From an uncultured Acidobacteriota bacterium (lineage in GTDB: Bacteria; Acidobacteriota; Thermoanaerobaculia; Multivoradales; JAHEKO01): a stretch of 64,000 bases of DNA. The notes under the pieces are model-generated. The model was not told the DNA's origin and searched no databases. It saw only the letters and a list, made by a program, of their open reading frames with translations. Position 1 is the stretch's first letter, and every line of letters starts with the position of its first letter. The position numbers and the translations under genes were made by a program. This document shows, piece after piece, positions 7,496 to 60,906 of the stretch. Location of the stretch: NCBI GenBank assembly GCA_963713825.1, contig CAVQNG010000005.1, forward strand, positions 32,001 to 96,000, read 5' to 3'.

Positions 7496-10198
<2,703 letters not shown>

Positions 10199-12563: not shown

Positions 12564-12857
12564 GGCGTTCCCTCCAGGAGTCACGCACCTATTATAAACC
12601 CCGTATTTTCAACGCTTTAGCTTGCCCACTGGCGCACGATCGAGGGGCCTAGAGGCATCTTCGTTACGCTTCTCGAGGTACGCCACGCAGGGAGCAACCC
12701 AGGGCCACACAGACCCTTTCAAAGGTCGATCTCAGAGGCTCCGAAAATTGACGCGAAAATCCTGTCAAGTCTTTTCTTCGATCTTTTCGATCAATCTGTG
12801 TGTTACTCGACCATCGACCGACTGGCTCCTCCTGAAGTCAGTGGAGTAGCTGAAGCC

Positions 12858-15626: not shown

Positions 15627-18374
15627 TTCGGGCCTGCGAATTCGGTGGTCCAGTTCTGGACCAGGATAAAGGGTTCCTCGGTGGGCTGCTCGGCGACGCG
15701 GTTGAGCAGGAACCGTTGACCGTCGAGGGAGGCATCGAATTCCAGTCCCCAGCTACCGATGTTGCGGAGACGCGCCTGGAAGAGCGCCTGCGGCTCGCCG
15801 ACCTCGGGATGCTCCGACAAGCGGATTGGAACCGCGGTTACATGACCATCGGCAGACCAGTAGTAGAGCTCCTGGCCGTCGGATCGCCAGAGCGGCATGG
15901 TGCCGCCGTTGTCGGTGATGGGGATCTTCTCGCGCCTCTCCGGAAAGCTCTGCAGGTAGATCTCGAACCTGCCGGATTCGTTGGAGGTGTAGGCCAACCA
16001 GCGGCCATCGGGCGAGAAGCGCCCGTCCCGCTCCGAAAAGGACGTTGCGAGCCAGGGCTGAGCGGTACCATCGTCCAGGTCGTGGATCCAGAGGTCATTG
16101 ACCATCTCCGACTCGAGCGTGCGATCCCGGCGAAAGAGCAGGTAGCTCCCGTCGGGGGATACGTCGCACGGTGAGCCGTCGCCTACGACCAGGCGCGGCT
16201 CCGCGCCGCCCGAGAGGCTCTTGACGTAGATGTCGTTGCGCTCCTCGACCCGCACGTAGTAGACCTCACTGTCGTCGCGTGACCAGACGGGAAGTGTCTC
16301 GTCGACCTCGCTGTAGGTGAACCGGTTGGGTACGGCACGCGCCAGGTCGAAGACCCACAGGTCGGCGAGAGGGAGGCTCTGGTCCACGACAACCCTCCGG
16401 CCGTCGTGCGAGATGCGGGGATAGTAGAACTCGCTAGGTGGGGCCACAGTCTCTTTGAAGATCCCAGCTCGGTCGACCCACACGAGATCGGTCGTCGCCA
16501 CGGCGGCGTCACCGGGCAGGTAGGCCAGCAACCCGCTGCCGGATATCGCGAAGAAGCCGTTGACAGGCCAGTTCGCGCGCACCCGGTCGGCCACTCGGAA
16601 GATCTCGTCTCCCAGAGTCATACTCTCGACATCGAAAGTGCGGGCACGCAGGGACCCACTCTCCCAGAAGATCAGGTAGCCCGGCGCGGCGTAGGCAGCA
16701 TGCAGTCCGTTGTCGGCCGTCAGAAGGCGAACCTCTGAGGAGTCCAGCGAACCCACATAGATTCCAGTGAGCGTCTCGCCCTGATCGAGTACCGAGAACA
16801 GAAAACGACGGCCGTCTGGAAGAAAGGACGGGCGCATGTGGTAGTCGCGGAGAACACCTGGTGCGACCTCGGCGGCCTCGGTCACGGCGCCACCCGTGGA
16901 GTCGACGCGCTTGATTCCCTGGCCCCAATCTCCGGGTGCGAAGACGATCACGCCGTCCTGGTTCCAACTGCCTCCCTCGGGGACAGGCGCGTCGGCTAGA
17001 ACTTCGGGCTCGCCACCCTCGAGGTCGACTCGTTTGAGCTTCCCATTGGCGAAGAAGCCGAGAGCGCTCCCATCGGGAGACCAGAACGGGGAAGTCGCTC
17101 CTTCGGTGCCTTGTAGGATCCTGACGGTCGAGCTGTCGAGCGATCGCACCGCGAGCAACGCCGTGCCGTCCGTATCGACGGCGACAAAGGCCAGGCGGCT
17201 ACCGTCGGCCGAGAAGGCCATGGGTCCCCGCGAGGTGCTGTAGGCGAGCTCCTCTGGGGCCGGGAGTGCCGACACCAGTCGCGAGGCCACCGAGGGGTCC
17301 TCGGCCGATGGGTTTCTGAGACCGACTACCAGCGCGAAGGTTACGGCCGCCGCCGCCAAGCCCCAGGGCAGCCATCGCTGCCAGGCTGGGATCGTCTGTC
17401 CTGGCTCTGCAGTCGATTCCTCGTTTTCCGGTTCCGCCTGCGATTGACGAATCTGGATGCGGGCTTCGCCGATGTCGCGCAAGCGGTTCATCGGGTCCCG
17501 ATCGACACAGCGCACCAGCAACCTGCGAATCGAGTCGGGGGTCTCGGGTGGTAGCGCATCGAAATCGATGTCCGCGCGGACCACCGCTGCGAGAACGTCG
17601 GTTACCGAGGGGCCGGCGAAGAGCTGGCGACCGGCCAGGAGCTCGAAGAGCAGGACTCCGAAGGCCCAGATATCGCACCGCTTGTCGACCTCCTGGCCTC
17701 GGGCCTGCTCGGGAGCCATGTAGGCCGCGGTACCGAGAAGCATCCCAGGCTGGGTCATCTGGGCGGTGAGCGTCGGTGACATCGACAGTGGGGACTGGAT
17801 CGGATCTCGATCCGTTCCTGTCCCCGTTTCGAGCGCCTTGGCAAGGCCGAAGTCGAGTACCTTGACCTTGCCGCCGGGGGTGACCTTGACGTTGGCGGGC
17901 TTGAGATCCCGGTGGACGATCCCCTGACCATGGGCCTCTTCGAGAGCATCAGCCACCTGCGCCGCCATCTCGAGAGCATCGTCCATCGGCACACCTCGAG
18001 CAATGAGCTCTTGAAGAGTGTCGCCATCGACGAGCTCCATGACGAGGAAGTGGATAGAGGGTCCTGGGTCCTGGGGCTTGGGTCCTGGGGTTTTCCCCCG
18101 CCCCGTCTTTTTTGAAGCGGCCGGACCCTGTGCCGGCCGTCGCGCGTTCGAACGAGTAGATCGCAGCGATGTTCGGGTGATTGAGCGAAGCAAGGACCTT
18201 CGCTTCGCGCTCGAAGCGGGCCAGGCGCTCGGGATCGGAGGCCACTGCATCGGGCAGGACCTTGATTGCGACCTCACGCCCCAGCTTGGTGTCCTCGGCC
18301 AGGTAAACCTCACCCATGCCGCCCTCGCCGAGCTTGGCGGTGATCTTGAAATGCGCGAGGGTGGATCCGATCAT
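15623..18374 (-). CDS. K4: Ser/Thr kinase + TM + PD40 beta-propeller; +1 frameshift at ~18091-18094
   Basis: N-terminus in ORF 17949..18374, remainder in ORF 15623..18313. Reads GGGG-TTTT-CCCCC where paralogue K3 has GGGG-ATT-CCCCC. Confidence 0.88.
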
Positions 18375-20987: not shown

Positions 20988-22592
20988 TCAGGGCTTGACG
21001 GCCGACCACTGAGAAAGGTCGCCTGATTCGAATCCGTCCTCGAATACCACAGGGGGACCATCCGAGACGAAGAGAATCGAGTCTGCCACCGTCACGTTGC
21101 GGTCTGAGTCCATGGCACCCATTCTTATGGTGAGCTGGTCCTCGAGGAGAATTCCGCCAGCAGGCTTCCCTTCGGTGGAGAACACCCCGTCGCCAGCGGC
21201 CGTATCAGGGTAGGCGCCGTCGTCATGAGCGGGGAGATTGAAGTACATGGGGAGGATGTTGGAGTTGTTCTCGAGCATGCCGTCGAGCAGCTCGTCCGTG
21301 GCGGTTTCCACAACGTCTCCCAAGCCCTGGGGATCGGAGACTTGCGAGGTCAGGATCACCCGTGCAGACGGATCGTCATCGACCATGTACGACGGGTCGA
21401 ACACCATGTTGTGAATGACCGGCGCAGGTGAAACCGGAGCGGCAGGGTTCAGATCACCCACGTAAAGGCTGAGGAAGTCGTGGCGAAAGCACACCCTCGA
21501 CCCATCGTCGCTGACGACCGGGTCCCAGGTCGATGCGATGGCAATATTGTTGACGTCCCACGCGGGGAAGAGATCGAGACCGCCGGTGCCGTCGGTTCGG
21601 GTCAGCCTGCCGCCTCCTGCTTCGGTGTCGTAGTAGAACATCCGGTCGCCCAACAGGGTCATGGTGTTGCCACCGACATTGAACCCACGGGGCTCGAGCT
21701 CGGTCAGGTCGCTGCCGTCGGGGTCAATCGAGAACCAGTTGGCTCCGTTGGAGAACGCAATCGTGCTGCCGTCGCCACTGATCGCAGGGTAGTCCTCGAT
21801 TTCGTTGTTCAGGGTCAACTGGCACTGGTCACCCATGCCGCAATCCTGGCCGTCCGCCTTGGCGAAAAGGTCGGCGATGGTCACCAGGCCTCCAGGGGGG
21901 GGCTCCCAATAGCCCATGAGGGTGAAGGTCAACTGACTGCCGTCGTCGGACACGTCGAACGTGGCCACGGCCCAGCCCTTGAGCCCACCGTTGCGCAGCA
22001 CGGCCTCGTCGTCCACGATCAGCGACGGTGCACCGCCGCTGTGGTGCACTCGCCAGATATCCTGGCGATCTTCCTTGAAGAAGACGTACTGACCGTCCCA
22101 TGTTGTGCGCACAAGAGGTATGGCAACGCTGGGAGTGATGTCCGCCCAGTCATCTGCGTCCAGGATCTCGGTGATCGTTCCGCTTTCGACCTTGTAGATG
22201 CGGTGTTGATACCAAGGAGTGACGAAGAAAGCTCTCGAACCATCACGACTGATAGCGAGGTCGGCCGGCGTGATTTGCTCCGCTGCGTTTTGCGGATCGA
22301 TCGGCAGCAGGATGCTGGTGAGATTCGAGCCATCGGCATCCACCAGGTAGATCTTCTTCTCGTTGGTATCCGACTGACGGCCGTAGAAGACGACGGTGGA
22401 TCCATCCCCGCTCATGGTCGCGTCCTCGATTACCAGGTCGCTTCCAGGACCGAAGAAATCGTCGCCATCGACGATCCGGATGTAGCTCGCTCTGAACTGG
22501 ATGCCAGCGGACAGGCTGGTGGGTTCACAAAGGACTGAGGCCAACGGCGTGACTACCCAGACGCACAACACAACAAGGCGACGTGTCAACAT
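20988..22592 (-). CDS. secreted TolB-like beta-propeller protein with a choice-of-anchor-X-like motif and C-terminal 'FEDGFESGDLSQWS'
   Basis: Signal peptide; 'SGDGS/SDDGS' blade repeats; 'HDDGAYPDTAAGDGVFS'. Confidence 0.8.
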   Translation of the reverse strand: MLTRRLVVLCVWVVTPLASVLCEPTSLSAGIQFRASYIRIVDGDDFFGPGSDLVIEDATMSGDGSTVVFYGRQSDTNEKKIYLVDADGSNLTSILLPIDPQNAAEQITPADLAISRDGSRAFFVTPWYQHRIYKVESGTITEILDADDWADITPSVAIPLVRTTWDGQYVFFKEDRQDIWRVHHSGGAPSLIVDDEAVLRNGGLKGWAVATFDVSDDGSQLTFTLMGYWEPPPGGLVTIADLFAKADGQDCGMGDQCQLTLNNEIEDYPAISGDGSTIAFSNGANWFSIDPDGSDLTELEPRGFNVGGNTMTLLGDRMFYYDTEAGGGRLTRTDGTGGLDLFPAWDVNNIAIASTWDPVVSDDGSRVCFRHDFLSLYVGDLNPAAPVSPAPVIHNMVFDPSYMVDDDPSARVILTSQVSDPQGLGDVVETATDELLDGMLENNSNILPMYFNLPAHDDGAYPDTAAGDGVFSTEGKPAGGILLEDQLTIRMGAMDSDRNVTVADSILFVSDGPPVVFEDGFESGDLSQWSAVKP

Positions 22593-22742
22593 GCCACCTC
22601 CTAGAGGGGAGCCGGGCCGATACTGAGATTATGAAGATCCCTTGCCCGCGATGCAATAGCAGGAAGGGTGGAAGGGGTTGTGCCGGTTATCGATTCTCAG
22701 AACGAAGCGGCCGACGCCCCTGCAGGCCGATGGGCGAGTGGG

Positions 22743-25478
22743 TCATCGATTCGGGAGCTCCGCTGGCCAATTGACGACGAGATTCACCACGGTCTCGGAG
22801 TTTCGCTGCTTGTTGGACCAGACGAGGAGCCTTTCGCCATCAGGGGCCAGGGCGAAGCTGGTTCCATCGGGTCTGGGAGGCTGAATCTGAAACAGCGGCT
22901 GAAGCTTGCCCGGTTGCAGGGATTCGGAACCGAAGGCGATCTCCGCCGCCACCAGCTGACCGTTCTGCTGCGTGAAGACGATCTCGCGGCCATCCGACCG
23001 CCACTGGGGGAAGAGCCCACCCTCTTGTGACACCTGCCAGCGGCGCCCTGCCTCCGGAAAAGGGGCCACGTAGATCTCATAGCGTCCCGACTCATTGGAG
23101 GAATACGCCACCCATCGGCCGTCGGGCGAGAAGGAGCCACAGCGTTCGTCGGCTTCCGTTTGCCGGAACGGTTTCGACTCGCCTCCTGCGCCTAGGTCCA
23201 ACACCATGAGGTCCCTGCTAGTGCCGGGCAGGGTCTGGTGGACCAACAGGGACCGCTCGTCTGGCGACACGCTGCACAGGATCATGTCTTCTTCTCGATC
23301 GACCAGGAGCTCTGTGTCACCGACTCCACCGACAGCCTTGCGATTGATTACGAAACGGTTGTTGTGCAACGCGCTGAAGATTACGCTGTCGCCATTCTCC
23401 GACCAGTCCAGGCCGAAGTTCGACATCGTTTCGAACGTGAAACGGCTGCGAAGACCGGTCTCGACATCGGTTAGCCAGAGATTACTGAGGCCCCCAGGGT
23501 CGAAGATGTCGGAGATCGCCTGCCTGCCATCCGGAGACAGTGCGATGGGCCCGAAGTTGGCCGGCTCGCCGACCGTATTCAGAACGTTGCCGGTGCGGTC
23601 TCTCCATTCGAGGGGCACCTCCGGATTGAGCACCCCAGTGTTGTAGGCGAGTAACCCGGAGTCGGAAGTGGAGAAGATCCCTAGTGCGGCGCCCGAAACG
23701 GTCAGGATCCCTTCCACCAGAGGAGTCGCCTCTCCCGTCAGCTCGAGTCGATCGGGGTCGAACCGCTGCGCCATCAGGGTACTGCCGCGGCTGAAGAGCA
23801 GCCAGCCCGCCGAATACTGTGCATTCGTGGGAGTTCTCAGGACCTCTCGACTGACGGGATCTTCGAGGGAGCCCAGCATCAGAGCGCTCTCCTCTTCCGT
23901 AGGACCGCGTGCCAGGTAGAGGAAGTGGCGTCCATCAGGGAGGAAGCGTGGGTGGCGGTGGGAGTTGTGAATCCCAGCCTCGATCTCTGTAACCACCACC
24001 GGCTCGCCACCCGCTGCTGCGACCTTGTGGATCGGCGAGTCAGCCCGGGGTGCGAAGAGGATCTCCCCGTCGCGATTCCACGTACCTCCCTTGCCATTCT
24101 CTGCGGCGCACACCGTAACGGGAGGTCCGCCCACGGTGTCGATCTTCTTCAGGGTCTGATCGACGTCGGTGAAGAAGCCGAGCCATCTCGAGTCTGGCGA
24201 CCAGAATGGATAGGCGGCACTCTCTGTTTCCGGCAGAGCCTCCGCAGCCCCGGTATCGAGAGCCTGGACGTAGAGGCGCACCGTGCCGCTTTCGTCCTGA
24301 ACCGAGAATGCGAGCTTCGTACCATCCGGTGACACCGCGACAGGGCCCGGGTTCCAGGCAGACAAATAGAAGACGCCCTCTTCCGGCGGGAGGATTGCGG
24401 CTCTCAGAACCGGAGTAGGGGAGGCCGGTTCGGAGCGAGACTGCACCCAGACCGCCAACAGTGCGACGGCTGTCAAGCCGAGGAGTGCCCAGGGCAGATT
24501 TTGCTTCCAGCCGGAAACCGGGGCTGGTGCGATTGTGGTCTTGGTGGTTTCGAAGCTGGTGGGATCTTCCAGGTAGTCCTGAATCAGGATCCTGGCGTCG
24601 CCGATGGCCTGCAGTCGTTGCGTCGGCTCTTTGCGAAGGCAGTGCTGCAGAAGGTCCAGGACCTGGGCTGGCGTGTTGGCCGGCAAAAGGTCCCAGTTGG
24701 GCTCCTCTTTGAGCACCGCCGCAAGGACGTGGGAGGCTGTCTTGCCGGCGAACTGCTGGCGTCCGGTCAACATCTCGGCCATGACAACTCCGAACGCCCA
24801 GATGTCTGCCCGCCGATCCGCTGGTTCGCCCGCAGCCTGTTCGGGGCTCATGTACGCTGCAGTGCCGAGCAGCACACCTGCCTGGGTCATCTGAGCGGTG
24901 AGCGTTGGTGACATCGACAGCGGGGACTGGCTCAGATCTCGATCCGTGCCTGTTCCCGGCTCGGGGTCCAGTGCCTTGGCCAGGCCGAAGTCCAGCACCT
25001 TGACCTGGCCACTCGGAGTCACCTTGATATTGGCCGGCTTGAGATCGCGGTGAATGACGCCGATCTCGTGAGCCGCTTCCAGCGCCTGGGAGATTTGCAG
25101 CCCGATCGGCATCGCTTCATCGAGCGGGACCGACCCTCGGTCGATACGCTCCTTGAGGTCTTCGCCCTCGACGAGCTCCATGACGAGAAAGTGGACGGAG
25201 GGGCGTAGGGGCGTAGGGGCTTGGGGGCTTGCCCCCTCCCGTTGCGCTGATTCAAACGAGTAGATGGCGGCGATGTTCGGGTGGTTAAGAGAGGCGAGGA
25301 CCTTGGCCTCACGCTCGAAACGCGCCAGGCGTTCTGGGTCTGCAGCTACGGCCTCGGGTAGCACCTTGATGGCCACTTCACGCCCCAGCTTCGTGTCCTC
25401 GGCGCGGTAGACCTCACCCATGCCGCCTTCGCCCAGCTTGGCGGTGACACGGAAGTGAGAGAGGGTAGTGCCGATCAT
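22743..25478 (-). CDS. K6: Ser/Thr kinase + TM + PD40 beta-propeller; 19-aa REP-derived loop
   Basis: Catalytic motifs; TM 'LPWALLGLTAVALLAVWV'; SPDG repeats. Confidence 0.95.
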   Translation of the reverse strand: MIGTTLSHFRVTAKLGEGGMGEVYRAEDTKLGREVAIKVLPEAVAADPERLARFEREAKVLASLNHPNIAAIYSFESAQREGASPQAPTPLRPSVHFLVMELVEGEDLKERIDRGSVPLDEAMPIGLQISQALEAAHEIGVIHRDLKPANIKVTPSGQVKVLDFGLAKALDPEPGTGTDRDLSQSPLSMSPTLTAQMTQAGVLLGTAAYMSPEQAAGEPADRRADIWAFGVVMAEMLTGRQQFAGKTASHVLAAVLKEEPNWDLLPANTPAQVLDLLQHCLRKEPTQRLQAIGDARILIQDYLEDPTSFETTKTTIAPAPVSGWKQNLPWALLGLTAVALLAVWVQSRSEPASPTPVLRAAILPPEEGVFYLSAWNPGPVAVSPDGTKLAFSVQDESGTVRLYVQALDTGAAEALPETESAAYPFWSPDSRWLGFFTDVDQTLKKIDTVGGPPVTVCAAENGKGGTWNRDGEILFAPRADSPIHKVAAAGGEPVVVTEIEAGIHNSHRHPRFLPDGRHFLYLARGPTEEESALMLGSLEDPVSREVLRTPTNAQYSAGWLLFSRGSTLMAQRFDPDRLELTGEATPLVEGILTVSGAALGIFSTSDSGLLAYNTGVLNPEVPLEWRDRTGNVLNTVGEPANFGPIALSPDGRQAISDIFDPGGLSNLWLTDVETGLRSRFTFETMSNFGLDWSENGDSVIFSALHNNRFVINRKAVGGVGDTELLVDREEDMILCSVSPDERSLLVHQTLPGTSRDLMVLDLGAGGESKPFRQTEADERCGSFSPDGRWVAYSSNESGRYEIYVAPFPEAGRRWQVSQEGGLFPQWRSDGREIVFTQQNGQLVAAEIAFGSESLQPGKLQPLFQIQPPRPDGTSFALAPDGERLLVWSNKQRNSETVVNLVVNWPAELPNR

Positions 25479-25540
25479 CGGTCGTTGCGGCCGGCACGGG
25501 GTCCGGCCGCTTCCTGTTGCTTGTGGGTGGCGCCGATCAT
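25475..25540 (-). other. 21-codon bridge mini-ORF MIGATHKQQEAAGPRAGRNDR linking the K7 stop to the K6 start
   Basis: ATGA overlaps at both ends; contains the hairpin GCGGCCGG-N8-CCGGCCGC. Confidence 0.7.
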
Positions 25541-28245
25541 CTGGAGGCGAGCTTCTCCGTCCAATTTAAGACCAGAGATGCTCTCGTCGAACCCAAGTTG
25601 TCTTCCGGTTGCAGGACCAGGAACCTGCTTCCATCTGCAGAGACGTCAAAGGTGAAGTCGCCTGTCAGGAAGGGGCGATACGAGAACAGCGTTGTCTCTT
25701 GCCCGCCTCGGAAACCGTCCTCGGAAGTTTCGACGGGTGCCGCTTTCATCTCTCCTGAAGGGGAGAGGTAGAAGATCTCTTTGCCGTCGCCACGCCACTG
25801 TGCGTAGTCACCGCCCGCGCTCGAGACCTGCCATTTCCCTTCGAGGTCGGGAAACGAGGTCACGAAGACCTCGCGGATTCCCGACTCGTCGGAGGTATAG
25901 GCGAGCCAGCGGTTGTCGGGTGAGAAGGCGCAAGGCCACTCATTGAAGTCGCCGCCACGCAGTTCGACCGGCTCGGTCGAGTTTCCCCTCATCCTCAGCC
26001 CCAAGAGCTGTTCTCCTTCGACCTCCGAGCGTCCGTAGCACAGCCACTCGCCGTCAGAGGACCAATCATAGACCCACAGATCCCTGGTGTCGGAGGCGAT
26101 CAGCTCTTCCGTAGCGGTGCCGCTGACCGCCTTCTTGTAGATATCAAAGGAACCAGTTCGATTGTCACTATAGGCGATGGTACGACCATCCGGAGACCAG
26201 GCTGCGTTGCCAGTGTCCAGGCCGTCATCTGTGCTGGAGCTGAAGGTGAAGCGCGTTTTGACTCCTCGGTCCAGATCGAGAAGCCAGAGGTCTGCGCCTC
26301 CGCTCTTGGTATCTGCGATGGATATGGAAGCCGTACCTCCATCCGGTGACAGTCGAATCGACTGATAGGTCGCGGGCTCGCCTACGACCTCGACCGTTTT
26401 TCCCTCCCGATCCATCCAAACGATCGAGGCCGCCATGTTGATCAAGCCTCCAGGGTGAAAGGCCAGGACGCCGTTCGACGAGGCCGAGAAGGTCCCCATG
26501 GTGAAGGCGGAGTCGAAGAGTACGTTCTCTAACAACGGGATGGGATCGCCAGTGGTTTCCAAGCGGTCGGTATCGAAAGGCTGCGCGATGAGAGTCGACT
26601 CACGCATGTAGAGCAGGTGACCGGAGGCATAGGCAGCATTGGAAGCCATGTCGAGAACCCGCTTTCGCTCGCCGGTATCGATATCGACAGCAAAAACGCC
26701 CGGGTCGATTCCGGCTCCTCCAGATGTCGAGCGGGCGAGAAAGAGAACATTCCGGCCATCGGGAAGAAAATGGGGATATCGGTGGGTCTGCTCACTGCGC
26801 TCGGCGTCGAGTTGTGTGACCTGCTTGGGCTCGCCGCCGCCCTCGGGAATGCCCATCAACGGGCCTGTGAGATTGGGGGCGTAGACGATCGTGCCGCCCG
26901 ATCCCCAGGTGCCGCCGCGAGTATCGTTGACTTCGGTCAGAGCGATGGGCGGTCCACCCAGAACCGAGATCCGTTTCAAACGGGAACCCGCGAAGAAGCC
27001 GAGGTGTTGGGAGTCTGGTGACCAGAAGGGTCTGATGGCACCCTCCGTACCTGGAAGAGGGCTACCCATCGATTGATCGAGAGATCGGTGCCACAGCTGC
27101 TGGTTGCCTGCCTCGTCGATAGCCGAAAACGCCAGACGGGTGCCGTCGGGAGATACGACTACAGGTCCGGCGGTGAAGCCCGCTGGAACAAGAAGCACTC
27201 CCTCCGGCATCACGACGCTGGCGTTGACAAGAGGCATCGGTGTAGGAGATCTCTTGAAATAGGCGAGTCCGAAACCTGTGGCAGCCAAGCCAGCCAGGGC
27301 GAATGCAATCCAGGGAACCGCTCGCTTCCAGGTAGGCGGTCCGGGATCGGCGGGAGATCCGGTCGCCGGAGCAAAGGCATCCTCGCCGTTGGTCAGGAAC
27401 GTGCGGATCGCGATTCGAGCCTCGCCGATATCGCGCAGTCGCTCTTGTGGGTCGCGAGTCAGGCAGCGGCGCAGCAGCCGGGTGACCGACACCGGTGTCG
27501 TTTCCGGCAGCAGCGCCAGGTCGGGCTCGGTCTTGAGGACCTCGGCCAGGGTGTCGGAGACGGTATCGCCGGCAAAAAGTTGTTTCCTTGTGAGCATCTC
27601 CCACAAGACCACACCGAAAGCCCAGATGTCGGCCCTCTTGTCGGCCTCCTGGCCACGTGCCTGCTCGGGCGACATGTAGGCTGCCGTTCCCATCAGGACA
27701 CCAACCTGGGTCATCTGTGCGGTGAGCGTGGGAGATAGGGATAGGCCCTGGGGTCCTGGGGTCTTGAGGTCTTGGGGGTCCAGTGCCTTGGCAAGGCCGA
27801 AGTCGAGGACCTTGACGGTGCCGTTTGGCGTGACCTTGACGTTGGCGGGCTTGAGATCCCGATGGACAACCCCTTGCTCATGGGCCTCCTCGAGGGCGCT
27901 CGCCACTTGCGCCGCCATCTCCAGGGCGTTCTCGGGTGAAACGCCCTGTTCGATGAGCTCCTGCAGGGTCTCGCCGTCAATGAGCTCGAGTACAAGGAAC
28001 CGTTTGTCGTCGGCTTCTTCGAGACCGTAGATGGCTCCGATGTTCGGGTGGTTGAGCGAGGCGAGAACTTTGGCCTCACGCTCAAAGCGGGCCAGACGCT
28101 CCGGATCGCTGGCAACGGCCTCGGGTAGCACCTTGATCGCCACCTCGCGACCGAGCTTTGTGTCCTCGGCTCGGTACACCTCACCCATGCCGCCTTCGCC
28201 GAGCTTGGCGGTGATTTTGAAGTGAGAAAGAGTGGTGCCGATCAC
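25537..28245 (-). CDS. K7: Ser/Thr kinase + TM + PD40 beta-propeller
   Basis: GTG start (VIGTTLSHF) at 28245; catalytic motifs; TM 'VPWIAFALAGLAATGFGLAYF'. Confidence 0.95.
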   Translation of the reverse strand: MIGTTLSHFKITAKLGEGGMGEVYRAEDTKLGREVAIKVLPEAVASDPERLARFEREAKVLASLNHPNIGAIYGLEEADDKRFLVLELIDGETLQELIEQGVSPENALEMAAQVASALEEAHEQGVVHRDLKPANVKVTPNGTVKVLDFGLAKALDPQDLKTPGPQGLSLSPTLTAQMTQVGVLMGTAAYMSPEQARGQEADKRADIWAFGVVLWEMLTRKQLFAGDTVSDTLAEVLKTEPDLALLPETTPVSVTRLLRRCLTRDPQERLRDIGEARIAIRTFLTNGEDAFAPATGSPADPGPPTWKRAVPWIAFALAGLAATGFGLAYFKRSPTPMPLVNASVVMPEGVLLVPAGFTAGPVVVSPDGTRLAFSAIDEAGNQQLWHRSLDQSMGSPLPGTEGAIRPFWSPDSQHLGFFAGSRLKRISVLGGPPIALTEVNDTRGGTWGSGGTIVYAPNLTGPLMGIPEGGGEPKQVTQLDAERSEQTHRYPHFLPDGRNVLFLARSTSGGAGIDPGVFAVDIDTGERKRVLDMASNAAYASGHLLYMRESTLIAQPFDTDRLETTGDPIPLLENVLFDSAFTMGTFSASSNGVLAFHPGGLINMAASIVWMDREGKTVEVVGEPATYQSIRLSPDGGTASISIADTKSGGADLWLLDLDRGVKTRFTFSSSTDDGLDTGNAAWSPDGRTIAYSDNRTGSFDIYKKAVSGTATEELIASDTRDLWVYDWSSDGEWLCYGRSEVEGEQLLGLRMRGNSTEPVELRGGDFNEWPCAFSPDNRWLAYTSDESGIREVFVTSFPDLEGKWQVSSAGGDYAQWRGDGKEIFYLSPSGEMKAAPVETSEDGFRGGQETTLFSYRPFLTGDFTFDVSADGSRFLVLQPEDNLGSTRASLVLNWTEKLASR

Positions 28246-28258
28246 GAAGATCCCTCGG

Positions 28259-30646
28259 CTATCCTCTGGCCGCCATGCGATCCACCAGTTCCTGAAATCG
28301 GGGATCGTCACGGATGTTGTCGAGATCGCTGTCCTGGCGTAACCACTCGACGTCGGTCTTGCCGGCCGCGACCGATTTCTCCATGGCGTCGATGGCCAGG
28401 TCGACCTCCCCGGCCAGCGAGTAGAAGCAGGCCACGTTGTAAAGCAGCAATCCGTCGTCGGCTGCACTGTCGAGCACCATCTCGACCGCAGCAAACGCTT
28501 TGTCGCGCTGACCTAGGGCCAGCAACCCGGTCGCAGCAGTGAGGCGAACATTCAGATCGTCGGGGTAGAGCTCCAGATGACGAGTCGCCCACTCGAACAT
28601 TCGTCCATAGGCTCTCAGTGCGTCCTCTTCACGGCCCAGACTCGTGTAGACCTGAGGCAAGATGTTGATCGCACTCCGAGTCTCGGGGTCCAACTCGATC
28701 GACTTCTCCCACAGCTCTGCCGCCCTCTCCAGATCACCTTGCCTGTAGAGGAGAGACCCGTAGGCGACGTAATTTGCGGAGCTAGTCGGATCGAGCCGGA
28801 TGGCCTGCTGCAGCTCGGCCTCTGCGCCGGTAAGTTCGTCAGCTCTTTGAAGGTAGAGTGCCCGAGCGCGGTGGGCCTCGGCAAGGTCGGGGGCCAGGGC
28901 CAAGGCCTCGGCACTGGCCTGGCCGGCTGCCTCGAGATTGGCCGGGTCGGCTCCGGCGAAGTGGTAGAGGCTCTCGTGGGCCTTGGTCAGGCCCACCCAG
29001 GCCAACGCATATCCGGGATCGACCTCCGCAGCCCGCTCGTACATCTGAAGGGCGAACTCCCTCGCCTCGGGGGTACCCTGTCTCCGATACTGCTCGCCAC
29101 GCAGATAGAAGTCGTAGGCTTGGGTGTTGTCGGTGCCGCCAAGCTCGACGACGGTTTGGGCGTCGGGTGCCAACTCCAGCCGGAGCGCATCCGCGATACT
29201 GCCAGCGATCTCGTCTTGAACCGCGAAGACATCCTCCAGCTCGCGGTCATAGGTCTCCGACCACAGCTTGAAACCGTCGCTGACCTGGACCAGCTGGGTC
29301 GAGATACGCAACCGATTGCCGGCCTTGCGAACGCTACCTTCGAGGACGGTTTCCACCCCGAGTCGGTCGCCCACCCTTTGAATATCGAGATCCTTGCCCT
29401 TGAGCGCAAAGATCGCCGTGCGCGATGGCACCTTGAGTCCCTCGATCGTACCCAGAGCCTGGAGGAGCTCCTCGGTCATGCCGTCAGTGAAATACTCCTG
29501 GTCCTTTTCTGGGCTGAGATCCGCGAAGGGCAGAACTGCCACCGAGGGGGCGGCGGAAACAGGCGTCCGGGGGGACTCCGTCTCGACAGTCTGTTCCTTT
29601 CTGCCACGTCCGATCCACCAAGTCGCTGCCGCGACCAGGAACAGGGCTGCCCCGATCAGGGCCCACTTGCCGAGCTGTCCTCTCGCAGGTACTGGCATCG
29701 CCGCGGAGGAAACCGCGGAGCTCGGTGCCGAGCTGGCAGCTGGCATGGATTGATCCGTTAGCTGGGAGGTGCTGGTCGCAACCACCGAATCGGACTGAAC
29801 TTCGTCGCGCAGGCCATCCAGCTCGTTGCGGATGTCCTTCGCCGATTGGTAGCGCCGTTCGGGATCCTTCTCGAGGCAGCGTTGGATGATGCGACCCAAA
29901 TGACGCGGCAGATCGGCTCGCACCTCGGTTACTACCGCGGGAGTCTCACGAAGGATTCTCGACGCCAGATCGATACCGCTCTCGCCCTGGAAGGGGCGCT
30001 GGCCGGTGGTCATCTCATAGAGCACAACACCGAGCGAGAAGATGTCGGTCCGGTCATCGACCACCTTGCCCTGAAGCTGCTCTGGAGACATGTAGGGAGC
30101 AGTGCCCATGACCGTACCTTCCTTGGTCAGGGTCGCGGCTTCGGTGGCAGCTTCCTCGGTCGGGGCCTGGGCCTCGGTCGCCAGCTTGGCCAGCCCGAAG
30201 TCCAACATCTTGACCCGGCCATCGGAGGTGACCATGACATTTGCGGGCTTCAGGTCCCGATGGACGATGCCCTTCTCGTGCGCTGCGGCGAGTGCATCGG
30301 CCATCGGGATGGCGATGTCGAAAACCTTCGCCAGCGGCATACCCTGGGGCGGCACGAGTTGGTCGAGGCTCTCGCCCTCGACGAGCTCCATGATCAGAAA
30401 GCGTTGCCCGCTGTCCTCTTCGATGCTGTAGATGGCGACGATGCTCGGATGATTGAGCGCGGCCACTGCCTTGGCCTCGCGGCGAAAGCGCTCCAGGCGC
30501 TCAGGGTGGTCGGCCATCGCCGCCGGCAGCACCTTGAGAGCGACCTTGCGGTCGAGCTCGGTGTCCTCGGCCAGATACACCTCACCCATTCCACCTGCGC
30601 CGAGCTTGGCGGTGACTCGGAAGTGAGAGAGGGTAGTGCCGATCAT
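28259..30646 (-). CDS. K8: Ser/Thr kinase + TM + TolB-N-like + TPR
   Basis: Catalytic motifs; TM 'WALIGAALFLVAAATWWIG'; 'SVAVLPFADLS'; TPRs. Confidence 0.95.
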   Translation of the reverse strand: MIGTTLSHFRVTAKLGAGGMGEVYLAEDTELDRKVALKVLPAAMADHPERLERFRREAKAVAALNHPSIVAIYSIEEDSGQRFLIMELVEGESLDQLVPPQGMPLAKVFDIAIPMADALAAAHEKGIVHRDLKPANVMVTSDGRVKMLDFGLAKLATEAQAPTEEAATEAATLTKEGTVMGTAPYMSPEQLQGKVVDDRTDIFSLGVVLYEMTTGQRPFQGESGIDLASRILRETPAVVTEVRADLPRHLGRIIQRCLEKDPERRYQSAKDIRNELDGLRDEVQSDSVVATSTSQLTDQSMPAASSAPSSAVSSAAMPVPARGQLGKWALIGAALFLVAAATWWIGRGRKEQTVETESPRTPVSAAPSVAVLPFADLSPEKDQEYFTDGMTEELLQALGTIEGLKVPSRTAIFALKGKDLDIQRVGDRLGVETVLEGSVRKAGNRLRISTQLVQVSDGFKLWSETYDRELEDVFAVQDEIAGSIADALRLELAPDAQTVVELGGTDNTQAYDFYLRGEQYRRQGTPEAREFALQMYERAAEVDPGYALAWVGLTKAHESLYHFAGADPANLEAAGQASAEALALAPDLAEAHRARALYLQRADELTGAEAELQQAIRLDPTSSANYVAYGSLLYRQGDLERAAELWEKSIELDPETRSAINILPQVYTSLGREEDALRAYGRMFEWATRHLELYPDDLNVRLTAATGLLALGQRDKAFAAVEMVLDSAADDGLLLYNVACFYSLAGEVDLAIDAMEKSVAAGKTDVEWLRQDSDLDNIRDDPRFQELVDRMAARG

Positions 30647-30708
30647 CGGTCGTTGCGGCCGGCACGGGGTCCGGCCGCTTCAGGCTCCTTATGGGTAGTG
30701 CCGATCAT
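30643..30708 (-). other. 21-codon bridge mini-ORF MIGTTHKEPEAAGPRAGRNDR linking the K9 stop to the K8 start
   Basis: ATGA overlaps at both ends; 16-bp direct repeat ATGATCGGCACTACCC at 30693-30708 and 30631-30646. Confidence 0.72.
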
Positions 30709-33425
30709 GGGGTGGCCGTGAACATCTGCTCGAGCTCGTCGAACCAGTTGGTGACCATGACGACGTGATCGATCGTATCCGCGCTGTTGGATCCCTGGAA
30801 CATCACCAGGTATTCGGCGCCAGGTGCGACATCGTAGTCCAGGCTCGGGAACAGATCGATAAACCGGGTCTCGAAGAGAGTCTCGGGCCGCTTGGCTCGA
30901 AAGGTGTCTCCCGCGGTCTCGACCGAGGCCGTCGAAATGCCCAAGGCCGTTCGATAGAAGATCTGCTTCTGATCCGACGACCACGTTGGGTAGGTGGCCC
31001 GTTCACCGCCGGCAGAGATCTGCCACTCGCCTCGCCCTGAAGGGAACGGCCGCACGTAAGCCTCGAATCCCCCTGACTCGTTGGAGCCGTAGGTGATCCA
31101 GTTGCCATCGGGGGAAATTCTGCCACCGTACTCGATGAACTTCGTGGTGAGGAACATCTCGGGTTCCCCTTCGCCTTCGAGCTCCATGGTCATGATGTCC
31201 CAGTTGCTCTCTGGGTTGATTTGACTGAAGACGAGTGTTTTGCCATCGGGGGTAAGAGAACTGGGAGCCTGATCAAGATCGGTTTCGGTCAGTCGAACGG
31301 GCTGCTCAGAGCCATCGGCTGCGACGCGGAAGATGTCGTAAGAGTTTCCCCGGTCGGACTGGAAGTAGATCCACTCGCCGTCTGGAGACCAGACAGGTCC
31401 GGTGTCGTCGCCTTCGTCGAAGGTCAATCGGGTGTGAATGCCCCGGTCGAGATCTTCGACCCAGATGTCACCGTTGCCGCTCTCCGAAGCGATGTCGAGG
31501 GCGAGCCGGCGACCATCGGGTGAGAAGGCCGGGGTCCAGAACGTGCCGGAATCTTCGAGAAGTGGAGACACGAGGCCGTCCAGATCGACCCGCACCGCAT
31601 CGTAGGCGGCCGCACTCGCGGCACCCTGCATATAGACCAACTTGCCGTTGTCAGAAACGGCGTAGTGAGCCGTGCCGTAGGCACCCTCGTTGGTCGTCAG
31701 GGACTCGATGACCGGACCGGGAGAGCCTTGGAGCTCCAGGGTGACGGGGTCCATCGGTACCGCGTAGAGCGTTCCCTCACGAGCGTAGAGTAGATGTCCC
31801 GAGTTGGCCCAACGCGGGTAGGTACCGCCCTGGATCAGCACCTTTCTTTCGCCCGACTCCAGATCGAGGACCTCGATCGTGGCCTCTGCAAAACGGGCAT
31901 TCTCGGTGTGGGACACGAAGAGGACGGCCTTGCCATTGGGCAGAACATGCGGCCAACGATGGGTGATCTCTCCCTTCTCCTCATCGAGTGTCGTCAGCTG
32001 CTCGGGCTCACCACCGACCGCGGGAATGCGAAAGAGTGGGGCCTGCTGCCCGGGAGTGAAGATGATGTGGTCGTCCGGTGTCCAGGTTGCACCACGGCAG
32101 AAATCCACCGTGGCGATGGTCAGTGGCGTGCCGCCTGAGACGGACACCTTCTTGAGCTCGTTGGGGGTCACGAAGGCGATCCACTCGCCGTCAGGCGAGA
32201 AGAACGGCAGGTAGGCGAGGTCGCCACCCGAAACCATTCTTCCCTCGAGTTGATCCAAAGATCGCAGATGTAGGGCGCGAGTGGCCGGGTTGCCCGATAC
32301 ATAGGCCAGGTGCGTGCCGTCCGGCGAGATCACGACGCTGCTGCCAATCTGAGTCAACAAGGTGTCCTCGACGGGGATCTCGACATTGAGCCACATGGTT
32401 TCCGCCTGCGACCGATCTGGCGATCGGGTCCAGCCGACAATGGCGGCGGCTCCCGCAACTGCAGCCAGTGCCAGCGCGGCCCACGGCAGAACGCGGCGCC
32501 AGGTGGGTAGCGGAGCGTAGTTGGCTGTGGCGGCTTGGGCCTTGGCAGCCTCAGGATCGGCCAGATAGCCGGCGATGGCGATTCGAGCCTCGCCGATGGC
32601 CTGGAGCCGATCGTTGATCTCCTTCTGGAGACAGCGGTCGAGCAGGTTGCGGACGACCGGAGGCACGTCGGCGGGTAGCGCCTCCCATTCGGGCTCGCGG
32701 GCCAGGATTCCGGCCAGGGTGTCGGAGATGGTCTTGCCGGCGTAGACGGTCTGCCCGGTCAGCATCTCCATGACAACGGCACCAAAGGCCCAGATGTCGG
32801 CTCGGCGGTCGGCGGCTTCGCCGCGGGCCTGCTCGGGGCTCATATAGGCAGCAGTGCCCAGCAACACCCCGGCTCCAGTGTTCATCTGCGCAGTCAGGGT
32901 AGGCGACAGGGAGAGAGAGGGGTGGCTCGGATCCGAGTCCGAACCGGCTCCGGACTCGAGAGCCTTGGCGAGGCCGAAGTCGAGAACCTTGATCTTGCCG
33001 CTTTCGGTGAAGTTGATGTTGGCCGGTTTGAGGTCCCGGTGCACGATGCCTCGGTCGTGGGCCGTTTCCAGGGCTTCGGTGATCTGCAAGGCAATGGTCA
33101 TGGCTTCATCGAGGGACAATCGACCCCGCTTGATCCTCTCAGCGAGAGTCTCGCCCTCCACCAGCTCCATGACCAGGAAGTTGTGATCGTCGTCGTGCTC
33201 GACCTGGTAGATCGCGGCGATGTTGGGGTGATTCAGCGATGCCAGCACCTGGGCCTCGCGGCTGAAGCGAGCCATGCGCTCGGCATCCTGCGCGAAGAGC
33301 TCGGGCAGCACCTTGATCGCCACCTCGCGTCCGAGCTTGGTGTCCTCGGCACGGTACACCTCGCCCATGCCGCCCTCGCCCAGCTTGCCGGTTATCTTGA
33401 AATGAGCCAGAGTCTCACCAATCAT
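30705..33425 (-). CDS. K9: Ser/Thr kinase + TM + PD40 beta-propeller
   Basis: Catalytic motifs; TM 'VLPWAALALAAVAGAAAIVGW'; SD GAGGAG. Confidence 0.95.
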   Translation of the reverse strand: MIGETLAHFKITGKLGEGGMGEVYRAEDTKLGREVAIKVLPELFAQDAERMARFSREAQVLASLNHPNIAAIYQVEHDDDHNFLVMELVEGETLAERIKRGRLSLDEAMTIALQITEALETAHDRGIVHRDLKPANINFTESGKIKVLDFGLAKALESGAGSDSDPSHPSLSLSPTLTAQMNTGAGVLLGTAAYMSPEQARGEAADRRADIWAFGAVVMEMLTGQTVYAGKTISDTLAGILAREPEWEALPADVPPVVRNLLDRCLQKEINDRLQAIGEARIAIAGYLADPEAAKAQAATANYAPLPTWRRVLPWAALALAAVAGAAAIVGWTRSPDRSQAETMWLNVEIPVEDTLLTQIGSSVVISPDGTHLAYVSGNPATRALHLRSLDQLEGRMVSGGDLAYLPFFSPDGEWIAFVTPNELKKVSVSGGTPLTIATVDFCRGATWTPDDHIIFTPGQQAPLFRIPAVGGEPEQLTTLDEEKGEITHRWPHVLPNGKAVLFVSHTENARFAEATIEVLDLESGERKVLIQGGTYPRWANSGHLLYAREGTLYAVPMDPVTLELQGSPGPVIESLTTNEGAYGTAHYAVSDNGKLVYMQGAASAAAYDAVRVDLDGLVSPLLEDSGTFWTPAFSPDGRRLALDIASESGNGDIWVEDLDRGIHTRLTFDEGDDTGPVWSPDGEWIYFQSDRGNSYDIFRVAADGSEQPVRLTETDLDQAPSSLTPDGKTLVFSQINPESNWDIMTMELEGEGEPEMFLTTKFIEYGGRISPDGNWITYGSNESGGFEAYVRPFPSGRGEWQISAGGERATYPTWSSDQKQIFYRTALGISTASVETAGDTFRAKRPETLFETRFIDLFPSLDYDVAPGAEYLVMFQGSNSADTIDHVVMVTNWFDELEQMFTATP

Positions 33426-33524
33426 TCGTCAACTCCTCGAGCCGGCGGATGTCTTCACAATCCGCACGTTGAGCTCCGATCGCAGGATGTAACGGAACTT
33501 GTTGGCGCCTATTGTATGACGGAA
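32494..33524. repeat. ~1.03 kb direct repeat, copy 1 (promoter region + kinase domain of K9)
   Basis: Aligns to 35457-36487 at constant offset 2963; about 8 mismatches by eye. Confidence 0.92.
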
Positions 33525-33548
33525 TGGCCGGCGGGGAGATCGACCGAC

Positions 33549-33692
33549 TCACAACTGCGATCGGCGGATTGAATCTGCTGTGGCGTGCTCGACGCGGCCG
33601 AGCTTGGTGTCCTCGGCTCGGTACACCTCACCCATGCCGCCTTCACCCAGCTTGGCGGTGATTCGGAAGTGGGAGAGGGTTGTGCCGATCAC
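33549..33692 (-). pseudogene. orphan kinase 5' stub: [33 protein letters not shown] + 14 unrelated codons
   Basis: GTG overlaps the K10 stop (GTGA); 33 codons of kinase N-terminus, then homology breaks at ~33594. Confidence 0.85.
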
Positions 33693-36388
33693 GGTCGCCT
33701 GAGATCGTTCTGCCAGTTGAGAACGAGGGCCATGGGCTGTTGGTTCTGTTGCTCTTTCTGCTCGGTCTGCTTGACGACCAGGAATCGCTGACCGTCGGCG
33801 GTCACATCGTAGTCGAAGCCGTCGTTGAAGGGTCCGAGCTCGAAAAGTGTTTCGGTGGCACCGACCTGGAAGGTGTCGCCCGAGCCGTCGACTTTGGTGG
33901 CCATCAGGGTGCCTTCGGCGGTCAGATAGAAGATCTCGCTGCCATCGCGGCTCCAGCGTGGCCAGTCACCGCCGTCCGAGATCTGCCATTTGCGTCCGCC
34001 GCCAGGGAACGGGGTGACATAGATCTCCCATTGCCCGGAATCGTCTCCCGCCCAGGCGAGCCACTGGCCGTCCGGAGAGACCATCGGGACCGTGTCGTTG
34101 AACTTCGTAGGCTGGAGGGGGATGGGCTCGCCCTCACCCTGGACATCCCAGGCGAACATGTCTTCGCTGGTGCCGGTGTTGACTTGATAGATCAGGTAGC
34201 GACCGTCGGGGCTCCAGCTGGAGGGATAGCTCGTGCCTTCTTGTTCGCGCAGGAGCTGCTCTTCGCCACCGCCGGTCATGGATTTCGCATAGAGCTGGAA
34301 CGAGCCGGATCGGTTGGAGCTGAAGGCGATCGTATTCCCATCCGGGGACCAGGCGACAAAGTAGTCTGCGCCGGTTTCGAAGGTGAAACGCGTCTCCAGC
34401 TCGCGATCGAGATCGAGCTGCCAGAGATCGGTGTTGCCGCTTTCGAAGTCGGCTTTGCTGACGATGGCCTGATTGCCCACGGGTGACAGCTGCACCTCGA
34501 TGTAGGAGTCGGGAGCGCCGATTTCGGAGAGGATCTCGCCCGAGCGGGACCTCCACTGCAGATTCGCCAGTACCGACTCACGGGCAGAACCCATCTGGTA
34601 GGCCAGGGTCCCCTGGTCGCTGACGGAAAATGAGCCGAGAACCGCTCCCATGTCGACATAGATGTTCTCGGCGAGTGGGAAGGCGTCGCCGGTAGTTTGT
34701 CGAGTCTCGGCATCGAAGGGTCGGGCCATCAACGTCTGATCGAAGACGTAGAGGAGATGTCCCGCGGCATACTCGACGTTGGAGGTCGCCGGCATCAGCT
34801 CACTGACTTCGCCCGCCAACGAGCCGATCTTGATGCTGCTGTTCGAACCGGCTCCACCGCCCCCGGCCCGGGCCACGAATAGGAAGTGGTCGCCATTGGG
34901 CAGGAAGCGGGGGTGACGATGGCTGTCCTCTCCGAGCTTGGCGTCGAACTCGGTGAGCTCGACCGACTCTCCTCCTGCCGCGCTGACCTTGTGCAAAGGA
35001 GAGTTGTGGCTCGGCGCAAAGACGATGGTGCCGGCATCGTTCCAGGCGCCGCCTTTGCCGTTGGACGCCTCGCACAGGGCCATGGCCGGTCCACCGGTCG
35101 CCTCGATCTTCTTCAGCTTGCCGCCGGCGAAGAAGCCGATGTGTCGACTGTCGGGGGACCAGAACGGGTAGAGGGCACCTTCGGTTCCAGTCAACGGCCT
35201 GGATTCCAGCTCGTCGAGGTCGCGGATCCAAAGCCGTTCGACCCCATCCTCACCGCGGATGCCGAAGGCCAAGGTGCGCCCATCGGGGGAAACCGCCACC
35301 GGGGCAGGGTAGTCCGAGCCCAGATTGAACTCTCCCCCTGGCGGAGCCGGAATGGACGCCCGCGTCGTTGGCTGCGGAGGAACTGGGTCTTGCGGCCAGA
35401 AGGCGATGGTCGCGGCCCCAACGATGGCCGATGCGGCGACTGCCCAGGGGAGTAGCCGGCGCCAGGTGGGTAGCGGAGCGTAGTTGGCTGTGGCGGCTTG
35501 GGCCTTGGCAGCCTCAGGATCGGCCAGATAGCCGGCGATGGCGATTCGAGCCTCGCCGATGGCTTGGAGCCGATCGTTGATCTCCTTCTGGAGACAGCGG
35601 TCTAGCAGGTTGCGGACAACTGGAGGCACGTCGGCGGGTAGCGCCTCCCATTCGGGCTCGCGGGCCAGGATTCCGGCCAGGGTGTCGGAGATGGTCTTGC
35701 CGGCGTAGACGGTCTGCCCCGTCAGCATCTCCATGACAACGGCACCAAAGGCCCAGATGTCGGCTCGGCGGTCGGCGGCTTCGCCGCGGGCCTGCTCGGG
35801 GCTCATATAGGCAGCAGTGCCCAGCAACACCCCGGCTCCAGTGTTCATCTGCGCAGTCAGGGTAGGCGACAGGGAGAGAGAGGGGTGGCTCGGATCCGAG
35901 TCCGAACCGGCTCCGGACTCGAGAGCCTTGGCGAGGCCGAAGTCGAGAACCTTGATCTTGCCGCTTTCGGTGAAGTTGATGTTGGCCGGTTTGAGGTCCC
36001 GGTGCACGATGCCTCGGTCGTGGGCCGTTTCCAGGGCTTCGGCGATCTGCAAGGCAATGGTCATGGCTTCATCGAGGGACAATCGGCCTCGCTTGATCCT
36101 CTCAGCGAGAGTCTCGCCCTCCACCAGCTCCATGACCAGGAAGTTGTGATCGTCGTCGTGCTCGACCTGGTAGATCGCGGCGATGTTGGGGTGATTCAGC
36201 GATGCCAGCACCTGGGCCTCGCGGCTGAAGCGAGCCATGCGCTCGGCATCCTGCGCGAAGAGCTCGGGCAGCACCTTGATCGCCACCTCGCGTCCGAGCT
36301 TGGTGTCCTCGGCACGGTACACCTCGCCCATGCCGCCCTCGCCCAGCTTGCCGGTTATCTTGAAATGAGCCAGAGTCTCACCAATCAT
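33689..36388 (-). CDS. K10: Ser/Thr kinase + TM + PD40 beta-propeller
   Basis: Catalytic motifs; kinase domain nearly identical to K9; TM '[20 protein letters not shown]'. Confidence 0.95.
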
Positions 36389-36487
36389 TCGTCAACTCCT
36401 CGAGCCGGCGGATGTCTTCACAATCCGCACGTTGAGCTCCGATCGCAGGATGTAACGGAACTTGTTGGCGCCTATTGTATGACGGAA
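35457..36487. repeat. ~1.03 kb direct repeat, copy 2 (promoter region + kinase domain of K10)
   Basis: Aligns to 32494-33524 at constant offset 2963. Confidence 0.92.
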
Positions 36488-36535: not shown

Positions 36536-38779
<2,244 letters not shown>

Positions 38780-60833: not shown

Positions 60834-60906
60834 TCGGCGTCGAGTGGTTTTGCTGTACACGAAGTCCGGTGGCCGGCAGAGCTATAGAAGCAGAGTGGAG
60901 GGTCTG

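Follow-up and report, generated by a model that had tools for sequence, protein, structure and literature searches.

Two neighbouring receptor kinase genes, K9 and K10, located in a 64-kb stretch of DNA from an uncultured acidobacterium (contig CAVQNG010000005.1, positions 32,001 to 96,000; this whole stretch is referred to here as the window), carry a practically identical block of 1031 base pairs (bp), which comprises a 5' leader and the kinase-encoding part of the gene and is fused in each case to a different sensor domain. The identity of the two blocks is far above chance and above the background of paralogous kinases. Comparison with related genes leads us to consider it probable that this arrangement is the product of two separate events: an old replacement, in which a K10-type receptor would have received the kinase of the K9 lineage, and a recent gene conversion between the resulting copies.

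The kinase block of K9 and K10

The two copies of the block, both on the minus strand, occupy positions 32494-33524 (K9) and 35457-36487 (K10), and, at a fixed distance of 2963 bp, differ from each other at 8 positions (99.2% identity). Each copy consists of a 99-bp leader (33426-33524 and 36389-36487, respectively; identical at 99/99 positions) and of codons 1-311, encoding the kinase and the juxtamembrane region, the last codon being represented by two of its bases. Seven of the differences are synonymous (codons 100, 101, 223, 256, 257, 262 and 275), while the single non-synonymous one is responsible for the sole amino acid difference within the block, at residue 116 (T in K9, A in K10).

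The homology ends sharply on both sides. In 50-bp segments the identity falls from 50/50 to 30/50 and 16/50 at the coding-side edge, and from 50/50 to 37/50 and 10/50 at the upstream edge. The final common residues, PTWRR, are placed directly before the predicted transmembrane (TM) helix, in a position where a hydrophobic stretch begins at residue 312, and the TM and sensor parts that follow are only 35-36% identical over approximately 545 amino acids (aa). The synonymous divergence (dS) between the two genes is 0.035 in codons 1-311 versus 1.34 in the part encoding the TM helix and sensor, where silent sites are saturated. The original prediction, made from the letters of the DNA alone, had described about 99% identity over 1031 bp with mostly synonymous differences and 99 bp of upstream DNA included, an abrupt stop after PTWRR at the start of the TM helix, and propellers that are only distantly related. 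All of these features were recovered in the pairwise alignment, in which identity is lost abruptly at both ends, with no gradual decay. When the window was compared with itself by BLAST (106 pairs), the next long matches were 781 bp at 89.8% identity (K3/K4) and 835 bp at 85.9% (K2/K7), and the kinase identity of other paralogue pairs of the array ranged from 40 to 89%.

Judging by sequence profiles and a structural model, K9 (30705-33425, minus strand; 906 aa) and K10 (33689-36388, minus strand; 899 aa) are predicted single-pass receptor kinases of the same architecture, i.e. with a cytoplasmic Hanks-type Ser/Thr kinase, one predicted TM helix and an extracytoplasmic TolB-like beta-propeller of the PD40 type, which differs between the two proteins. 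Both match the Pkinase (PF00069; 179.4 bits for K9 and 179.9 bits for K10, with a cut-off of 31.7) and PD40 (PF07676; 111 and 91.5 bits, respectively, with a cut-off of 20.9) profiles, and the typical catalytic motifs of such kinases (glycine-rich loop, VAIK lysine, HRDLKPxN, DFG and SPE) can be seen in both translations. The predicted TM segments, residues 312-332 of K9 (32430-32492, minus strand; mean Kyte-Doolittle hydropathy 2.2) and 312-331 of K10 (35396-35455, minus strand; mean 1.89), have their hydropathy maximum at residue 312 and constitute the only strongly hydrophobic stretch of each protein. In the AlphaFold2 model of K10, with a mean predicted local distance difference test score (pLDDT) of 82.4, residues 1-290 form the kinase, residues 314-329 a helix (low pLDDT) and residues 342-890 an all-beta region (mostly pLDDT >85). 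The kinases are similar in sequence to PknA, PknB and Stk1 (E 1e-46 to 1e-39; phmmer, E 9e-46), and the predicted kinase fold of K10 was matched by Foldseek to the same three proteins (E approximately 4e-21, TM-score to target 0.84-0.88), while its ectodomain was matched to TolB chains (E 2e-13).

Probable donor, recipient and homogenisation

Orthologues of the K9 sensor were searched for in one genome per species, and a protein collection was used for the searches with the K10 sensor and with the kinase. The closest genomic relatives of the window are metagenome-assembled genomes labelled Thermoanaerobaculia or Acidobacteriota. The kinase of the K9/K10 block is referred to below as type A, and the other kinase found on some K10-type sensors as type B. 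The four genomic orthologues of the K9 sensor, in loci L001, L002, L003 and L004 (95, 90, 88 and 88% identity, respectively), all carry kinase A. The search with the block kinase yielded 15 proteins with 79-97% identity, after which the identity dropped to 75%. Of the full-length proteins bearing a K9-type sensor that were found by the kinase and K9-sensor searches, 12 of 12 possess kinase A (sensor 67-94%, kinase 79-97%), one further K9-type protein being partial and devoid of the kinase part. Across the K9-type proteins the identity of kinase and sensor drops in step (from 97 to 85% and from 94 to 67%, respectively).

The relatives of the K10 sensor present a mixed picture. Five proteins were found (P0001 95%, P0002 89%, P0003 88%, P0004 89% and P0005 76% identity; next match 58%), of which P0001, P0003 and P0004 bear kinase A (92-95%), like K10 of the window, and P0002 and P0005 bear kinase B. 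The latter is 61-63% identical to A, and its two representatives are 85% identical to each other. In the alignment, the change of partner is located at one point in all A-bearing K10-type proteins, i.e. at the W-R-R/LPW edge, and the A and B forms become alike again from the W-R-x-LPW boundary between the juxtamembrane region and the TM helix. As far as can be read from these sequences, a single sensor lineage with two kinase types joined at one point is the result of a module swap. In the sensor tree, (P0005_B,(P0002_B,(P0003_A,P0004_A,(window,P0001_A)))), with values of 95, 93 and 98 in the Shimodaira-Hasegawa-like approximate likelihood ratio test (SH-aLRT), the B-bearing P0005 and P0002 branch off earliest, and the A-bearing sensors form one clade of four (SH-aLRT 93).

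The simplest reading of these data is that kinase A is native to the K9 lineage, that B was the original partner of the K10 sensor, and that one replacement of B by A took place before the four lineages split. The comparison of orthologues, by which the original prediction had hoped to identify donor and recipient, thus points to the K9 lineage as donor (kinase A in 12/12 cases) and to K10 as recipient (mixed A and B, with the order given by the sensor tree). In this first, old step, a K10-type sensor initially bearing kinase B would have had it replaced, on the branch ancestral to four of the six K10-type genes known, by the leader, kinase and juxtamembrane region of the K9 lineage, joined exactly before the TM helix. 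The swap must be old, because the fusion of kinase A with the K10 sensor is common to P0001, P0003 and P0004, whose sensors diverge by 5-12% (protein) from that of the window and form a clade with it. Both fusion junctions, that of K9 and that of K10, recur in independent assemblies.

Blocks separated since such an old fusion should differ at least as much as orthologues do, yet their dS is 0.035, and a later homogenisation is therefore needed. The dS between K9 of the window and its L001 orthologue is 0.18 in the kinase and 0.26 in the sensor, and the corresponding values for L002 are 0.42 and 0.70. It is only inside the block that the two paralogues of the window are closer to each other than orthologues are (0.18-0.42). 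In the kinase tree, K9 and K10 of the window are grouped together with L001/P0121 (SH-aLRT 95), to the exclusion of the other K10-type kinases. A tree with the four K10-type kinases forced into one group is rejected (log-likelihood lower by 44.7; p 0.008 in the approximately unbiased (AU) test). The near-identity of the blocks is most simply accounted for by gene conversion between tandem copies: in a second, recent step, the 1031-bp direct repeats created by the first one would have been homogenised in the lineage of the window, a step of which the pattern is visible and the mechanism presumed. The abrupt edges follow from this, because a conversion tract cannot pass the end of homology. The 8 substitutions would then have accumulated after the conversion or been left unconverted. 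The earlier proposal of a recent domain swap or conversion thus finds support for the conversion, in view of the dS values and the kinase tree, and none for the recent swap, since the same fusion is present in P0001, P0003 and P0004.

With L001-L004 as outgroups, the derived state at the 8 differing sites is found in K10 at 5-6 of them (all silent, mostly changes from G/C to A/T) and in K9 at 1-2 (including T116). These counts date changes that followed the latest event and do not give the direction of the event. Micro-conversion from a third gene as a source of the differences was rejected, as no other kinase of the window bears the K10 states at these sites.

Junctions and alternative explanations

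Formally, the K9 leader and kinase are present in the region as a tandem duplication of 1031 bp with 1932 bp between the copies, and this intervening DNA comprises the K10 TM helix and sensor, an orphan gene start and a spacer. The orphan start (33593-33692, minus strand) represents the 5'-terminal part of a third kinase gene, with 33 kinase codons, and its GTG start codon overlaps the K10 stop codon (GTGA). It is not of type A; its N-terminal type is that of K6 and K7 (90% identity to the K7 start, 89% to that of K6), and the homology ends after codon 33. The orphan start indicates that the K10 sensor once had a kinase gene directly behind it, and that the sensor was moved with the initial 100 bp of this gene attached. 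The orphan remains an open frame of 47 codons (33549-33692, minus strand). Between it and the K9 copy of the block lies a 68-bp spacer (33525-33592, minus strand), for which neither the window nor loci L001-L015 offered a significant match (short-word BLAST; chance-level words only), and whose local alignments with five upstream regions were no better than those of shuffled sequences, 59-443 of 500 shuffles being as good. On the other side, the K11 stop codon, 48 bp and the 99-bp leader upstream of K10 of the window align colinearly with the sequence preceding the K9 orthologues of L001-L003.

The junctions of the first step would have been illegitimate, given that the 5' edge of the block meets unrelated DNA and that the orphan start and 68 bp are placed between K10 and K9. 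Either template switching during replication or integration of a circular copy via a crossover within the block would give the tandem structure. A scar of a similar kind was observed in L003 (3252-3330), where the K9 orthologue shows a replacement of its own 5' end: a remnant of 21 codons opens with a type-A-like start, and its stop codon overlaps a second start, of the other N-terminal type.

Several points weigh against an old replacement followed by recent conversion. In the three relatives that have a K11 orthologue on their contig (L001-L003), the next gene is in every case the K9 orthologue, K10 being absent, the K11-K9 gap in L001 and L002 being 147 bp, as upstream of K10 in the window; in L004 the upstream neighbour of the K9 orthologue is unrelated. 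In the 20 kb of sequence covered for L001 and for L002 no K10-type sensor was found, the only match being the K12 orthologue (56-57%). Either the tandem is younger than the fusion, with K10 residing elsewhere, or K10 was deleted between the repeats, or it was skipped during short-read assembly; a deletion between repeats or an assembly skip would leave exactly the order K11-block-K9. Furthermore, the protein database was clustered at 90% and does not pair K9- and K10-type genes by genome. The group of four K10-type kinases that was rejected by the AU test had been set by sensor type but was tested after the tree had been seen, and monophyly of the P0001, P0003 and P0004 kinases was not rejected (AU p 0.16), which lends no support to recurrent conversion in other lineages. 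Finally, the 8 differences are clustered, with four in 58 bp and three in 47 bp (9 pairs at distances of 60 bp or less; p approximately 0.01), and random mutation after one clean conversion would not be expected to produce such clustering. One may speculate that these clusters, with a local density of 6-7%, similar to what would be expected of old copies, are patches left unconverted.

The lack of K10 in L001-L003 and the tandem structure with its scars would also fit a single recent event in the lineage of the window, i.e. either a duplication of the K9 leader and kinase into which a foreign sensor was inserted, or the integration of a circular copy of the K10 gene in the Campbell manner, with the 0.8% difference dating this event and no later conversion. 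The upstream context of K10 in the window, which is the orthologous context of K9, also speaks for this. However, the fusion of kinase A with the K10 sensor is found in P0001, P0003 and P0004 as well, with sensors 5-12% apart and in one clade, and a single recent event would require independent identical fusions or the transfer of much-diverged alleles. Moreover, if the blocks had diverged beforehand, integration by a crossover between them would leave the copies as different as they were. We thus regard such an event as unlikely.

Still less credible, in our opinion, is an artefact of assembly or polishing, in which the blocks would in truth differ more, or K10 would be misplaced, and the consensus would have been homogenised by cross-mapped reads. 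The source is apparently an assembly of the metagenome type, the open reading frames (ORFs) of K4 and of the beta-lactamase-family and MMPL genes are split near short homopolymer runs, which suggests consensus errors, and the relatives lack K10 at this place. Nevertheless, the copies retain 8 distinct substitutions, 7 of them silent, both fusion junctions are present in independent assemblies, no linear order other than that of the window can connect the four unique flanks, and the orphan start with its spacer constitutes a specific junction rather than a join induced by a repeat. As for the notion that K9 and K10 are ordinary old paralogues whose kinases were kept alike by purifying selection alone, it has in its favour that, among the 14 paralogues, the kinases generally show higher conservation than the sensors. 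It is refuted by the near-identity of silent sites (dS 0.035 versus 1.34 within one gene pair) and by the identity of 99 non-coding bases in a leader that shows only 67-85% identity to its orthologues; the far lower kinase identities of the other paralogue pairs also contradict it, and we attach practically no probability to it.

The leader, the kinase array and known systems

Compared with L001, the leader of the window is identical at 66/99 positions. It is closer to that of L003 (85%) than to that of L001 (67%), though L001 is the nearest in the coding part (95%), and its history may be mosaic. In a simple scan of the coding strand, neither K9 nor K10 was preceded by a -35/-10 pair of the sigma-70 kind. 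A conserved 16-nucleotide motif containing TACAAT (33507-33522 for K9 and 36470-36485 for K10, minus strand) lies at the extreme 5' border of the block and has only these two matches in the window when up to 3 mismatches are allowed. The core of this motif is kept in 5/5 lineages, in contrast to the divergence of the remaining leader, and GAGGAG precedes the start codon in all lineages compared. If TACAAT were a -10 element, the -35 region would be situated outside the block and would differ between the two genes. A conserved RNA fold in the leader found no support (RNAalifold with 5 sequences, covariation term +3, double changes in 2 of 26 pairs), and a hairpin preceding the ribosome-binding site was discarded, being out of register between the sequences. 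No Rfam family was matched across the whole window.

The window (64 kb, G+C content 62.7%, 0 N) contains 14 genes of Hanks-type Ser/Thr kinases, named K1-K14 in their order, which span approximately 48 kb. Nine of the 14 kinases are provided with PD40/TolB-like ectodomains and five with TPR repeats; among these is K11 (36536-38779, minus strand), a TPR-type Ser/Thr kinase recognized by profile match and synteny, which precedes K10 by 147 bp. Every long ORF from 28 to 42 kb encodes a kinase, no transposase genes or terminal inverted repeats were found at the junctions, and base composition shows no anomaly between 29 and 39 kb. Such inverted repeats as were found are kinase-gene homologies with K12. 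As regards nucleases, only one candidate gene was seen, an ORF (11241-12584, minus strand) that combines DUF222 with an HNH endonuclease domain and is located in the array between K2 and K3.

Two further pairs of genes bear traces of exchange. The adjacent genes K3 and K4, with overlapping start and stop codons, share a core of about 390 bp, in which 2 substitutions and 1 indel occur, within their 781-bp match at 90%, and this core (17829-18218 in K4, 15082-15470 in K3), which covers an unusual insert of the kinase domain, looks like a second, shorter conversion tract. K4 (15623-18374) has a normal kinase start near 18374 and changes frame at approximately 18090, in a run-rich stretch with a 1-bp length difference from K3, so that K4 may be either a pseudogene or the victim of a consensus error. 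The kinase parts of K2 (9364-10197) and K7 (27411-28244), 18 kb apart, are 86% identical in DNA and 89% in protein; the identity is 82-93% over codons 1-280 and about 45% from codon 281 onwards (third positions 66% versus 38%), and the sensors are 33% identical. This pair looks like an older event of the K9/K10 kind. In contrast, the K10 and K12 sensors (56%) and kinases (57%) are equally similar. Taken together, the sequences indicate that the histories of kinase and sensor are decoupled across the family.

The gene content of the array also varies between close relatives, to judge from the three loci compared. The interval from K9 to a conserved gene encoding a 534-aa protein contains three kinases, K8, K7 and K6, in the window (20988-30646), a single 562-aa gene on the other strand instead in L001 (11720-15293), and a gene of this 562-aa type together with one 968-aa kinase in L002 (11717-18443). 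Outside these families, the beta-lactamase-family (PF00144) and MMPL-family genes (60742-62593 and 51302-53055, respectively) each consist of two overlapping ORFs in different frames, with a G-run in the overlap of the former, which may reflect frameshifts or consensus errors.

Having the same catalytic and juxtamembrane part (with the exception of T116A), the same leader and the same ribosome-binding site, K9 and K10 would be expected to channel two external signals into one phosphorylation output, and the formula of one output with two inputs, put forward in the original prediction, seems a reasonable inference from the sequences. A bolder picture, to which we would give little credence at present, is that of a plug-and-play array, in which a cassette of leader plus kinase is repeatedly copied onto sensors (K9/K10, K3/K4, K2/K7 and the L003 scar), the near-invariant first 100 bp and the W-R-R/LPW edge act as anchors for recombination, and selection favours identical modules, so that receptors with different sensors can associate with one another and with common substrates. 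If true, it would mean the integration of two signals and not mere redundancy.

Novel sensor-kinase combinations in large bacterial repertoires have mostly been inferred from counts of domains, and the molecular steps are seldom visible. The K9/K10 pair illustrates known processes and no new principle, but here the exchange can be read at the level of single bases, with precise junctions (one of which coincides with the membrane boundary), a scar, an identifiable donor and recipient, and a later homogenisation. With an output module kept identical and sensors only about 35% alike, the two receptors constitute a concrete pair for asking about common substrates or receptor pairing. They are also a warning that trees of kinase domains in such families do not track the history of the genes. 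In the open-access literature we found no account of such an exchange in bacterial Hanks-type kinases or in Thermoanaerobaculia.

In kinase sequence and fold, and in the succession of kinase, one TM helix and extracytoplasmic sensor, K9 and K10 resemble PknA and PknB of Mycobacterium tuberculosis and Stk1/PknB of Staphylococcus aureus. They differ from these proteins in their sensor, an all-beta TolB/PD40-like region of approximately 550 residues in place of PASTA repeats, and in the number of such genes, of which 14 are packed into 48 kb. PknD is an example of a kinase whose sensor is a beta-propeller. Partial gene conversion which leaves some segments identical and others diverse is known from outer-membrane or surface gene families such as the bab/sab genes of Helicobacter and the opa and pil genes of Neisseria, where it serves surface variation; in K9/K10, by contrast, it is a signalling protein's cytoplasmic output module that stays constant.

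Bacterial sensor histidine kinases undergo lineage-specific expansion with domain shuffling, by a mechanism left open in the study of Alm, Huang and Arkin (2006, PMC1630713). The K9/K10 system is similar in that it belongs to a large paralogous signalling family, in which new sensor-kinase combinations arise within a lineage and with no transposon nearby. In that account, however, shuffling was inferred from domain content, while in the Hanks-type kinases described here the junctions, the scar and the polarity from donor to recipient are discernible at base level.

A close parallel in terms of process is offered by the mammalian Toll-like receptors TLR1 and TLR6, tandem paralogues for which domain-limited gene conversion has been described (PMC2077338). 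In both systems the receptor genes stand in tandem, the signalling side is closer between paralogues than between orthologues, and the ligand-binding part diverges. Repeated independent conversion in several species is shown for TLR1/TLR6 in the same source, and is a point of difference from K9/K10, for which the corresponding test (AU p 0.16) lent no support to it. The TLR1/TLR6 tract, as that source delimits it, includes the last leucine-rich repeats, the TM segment and most of the TIR domain, whereas in the bacterial Ser/Thr kinases K9 and K10 it stops short of the TM helix and takes in 99 bp of leader. Unlike in TLR1/TLR6, moreover, the homology between K9 and K10 on which conversion could act would itself have been made by an earlier replacement of a module.

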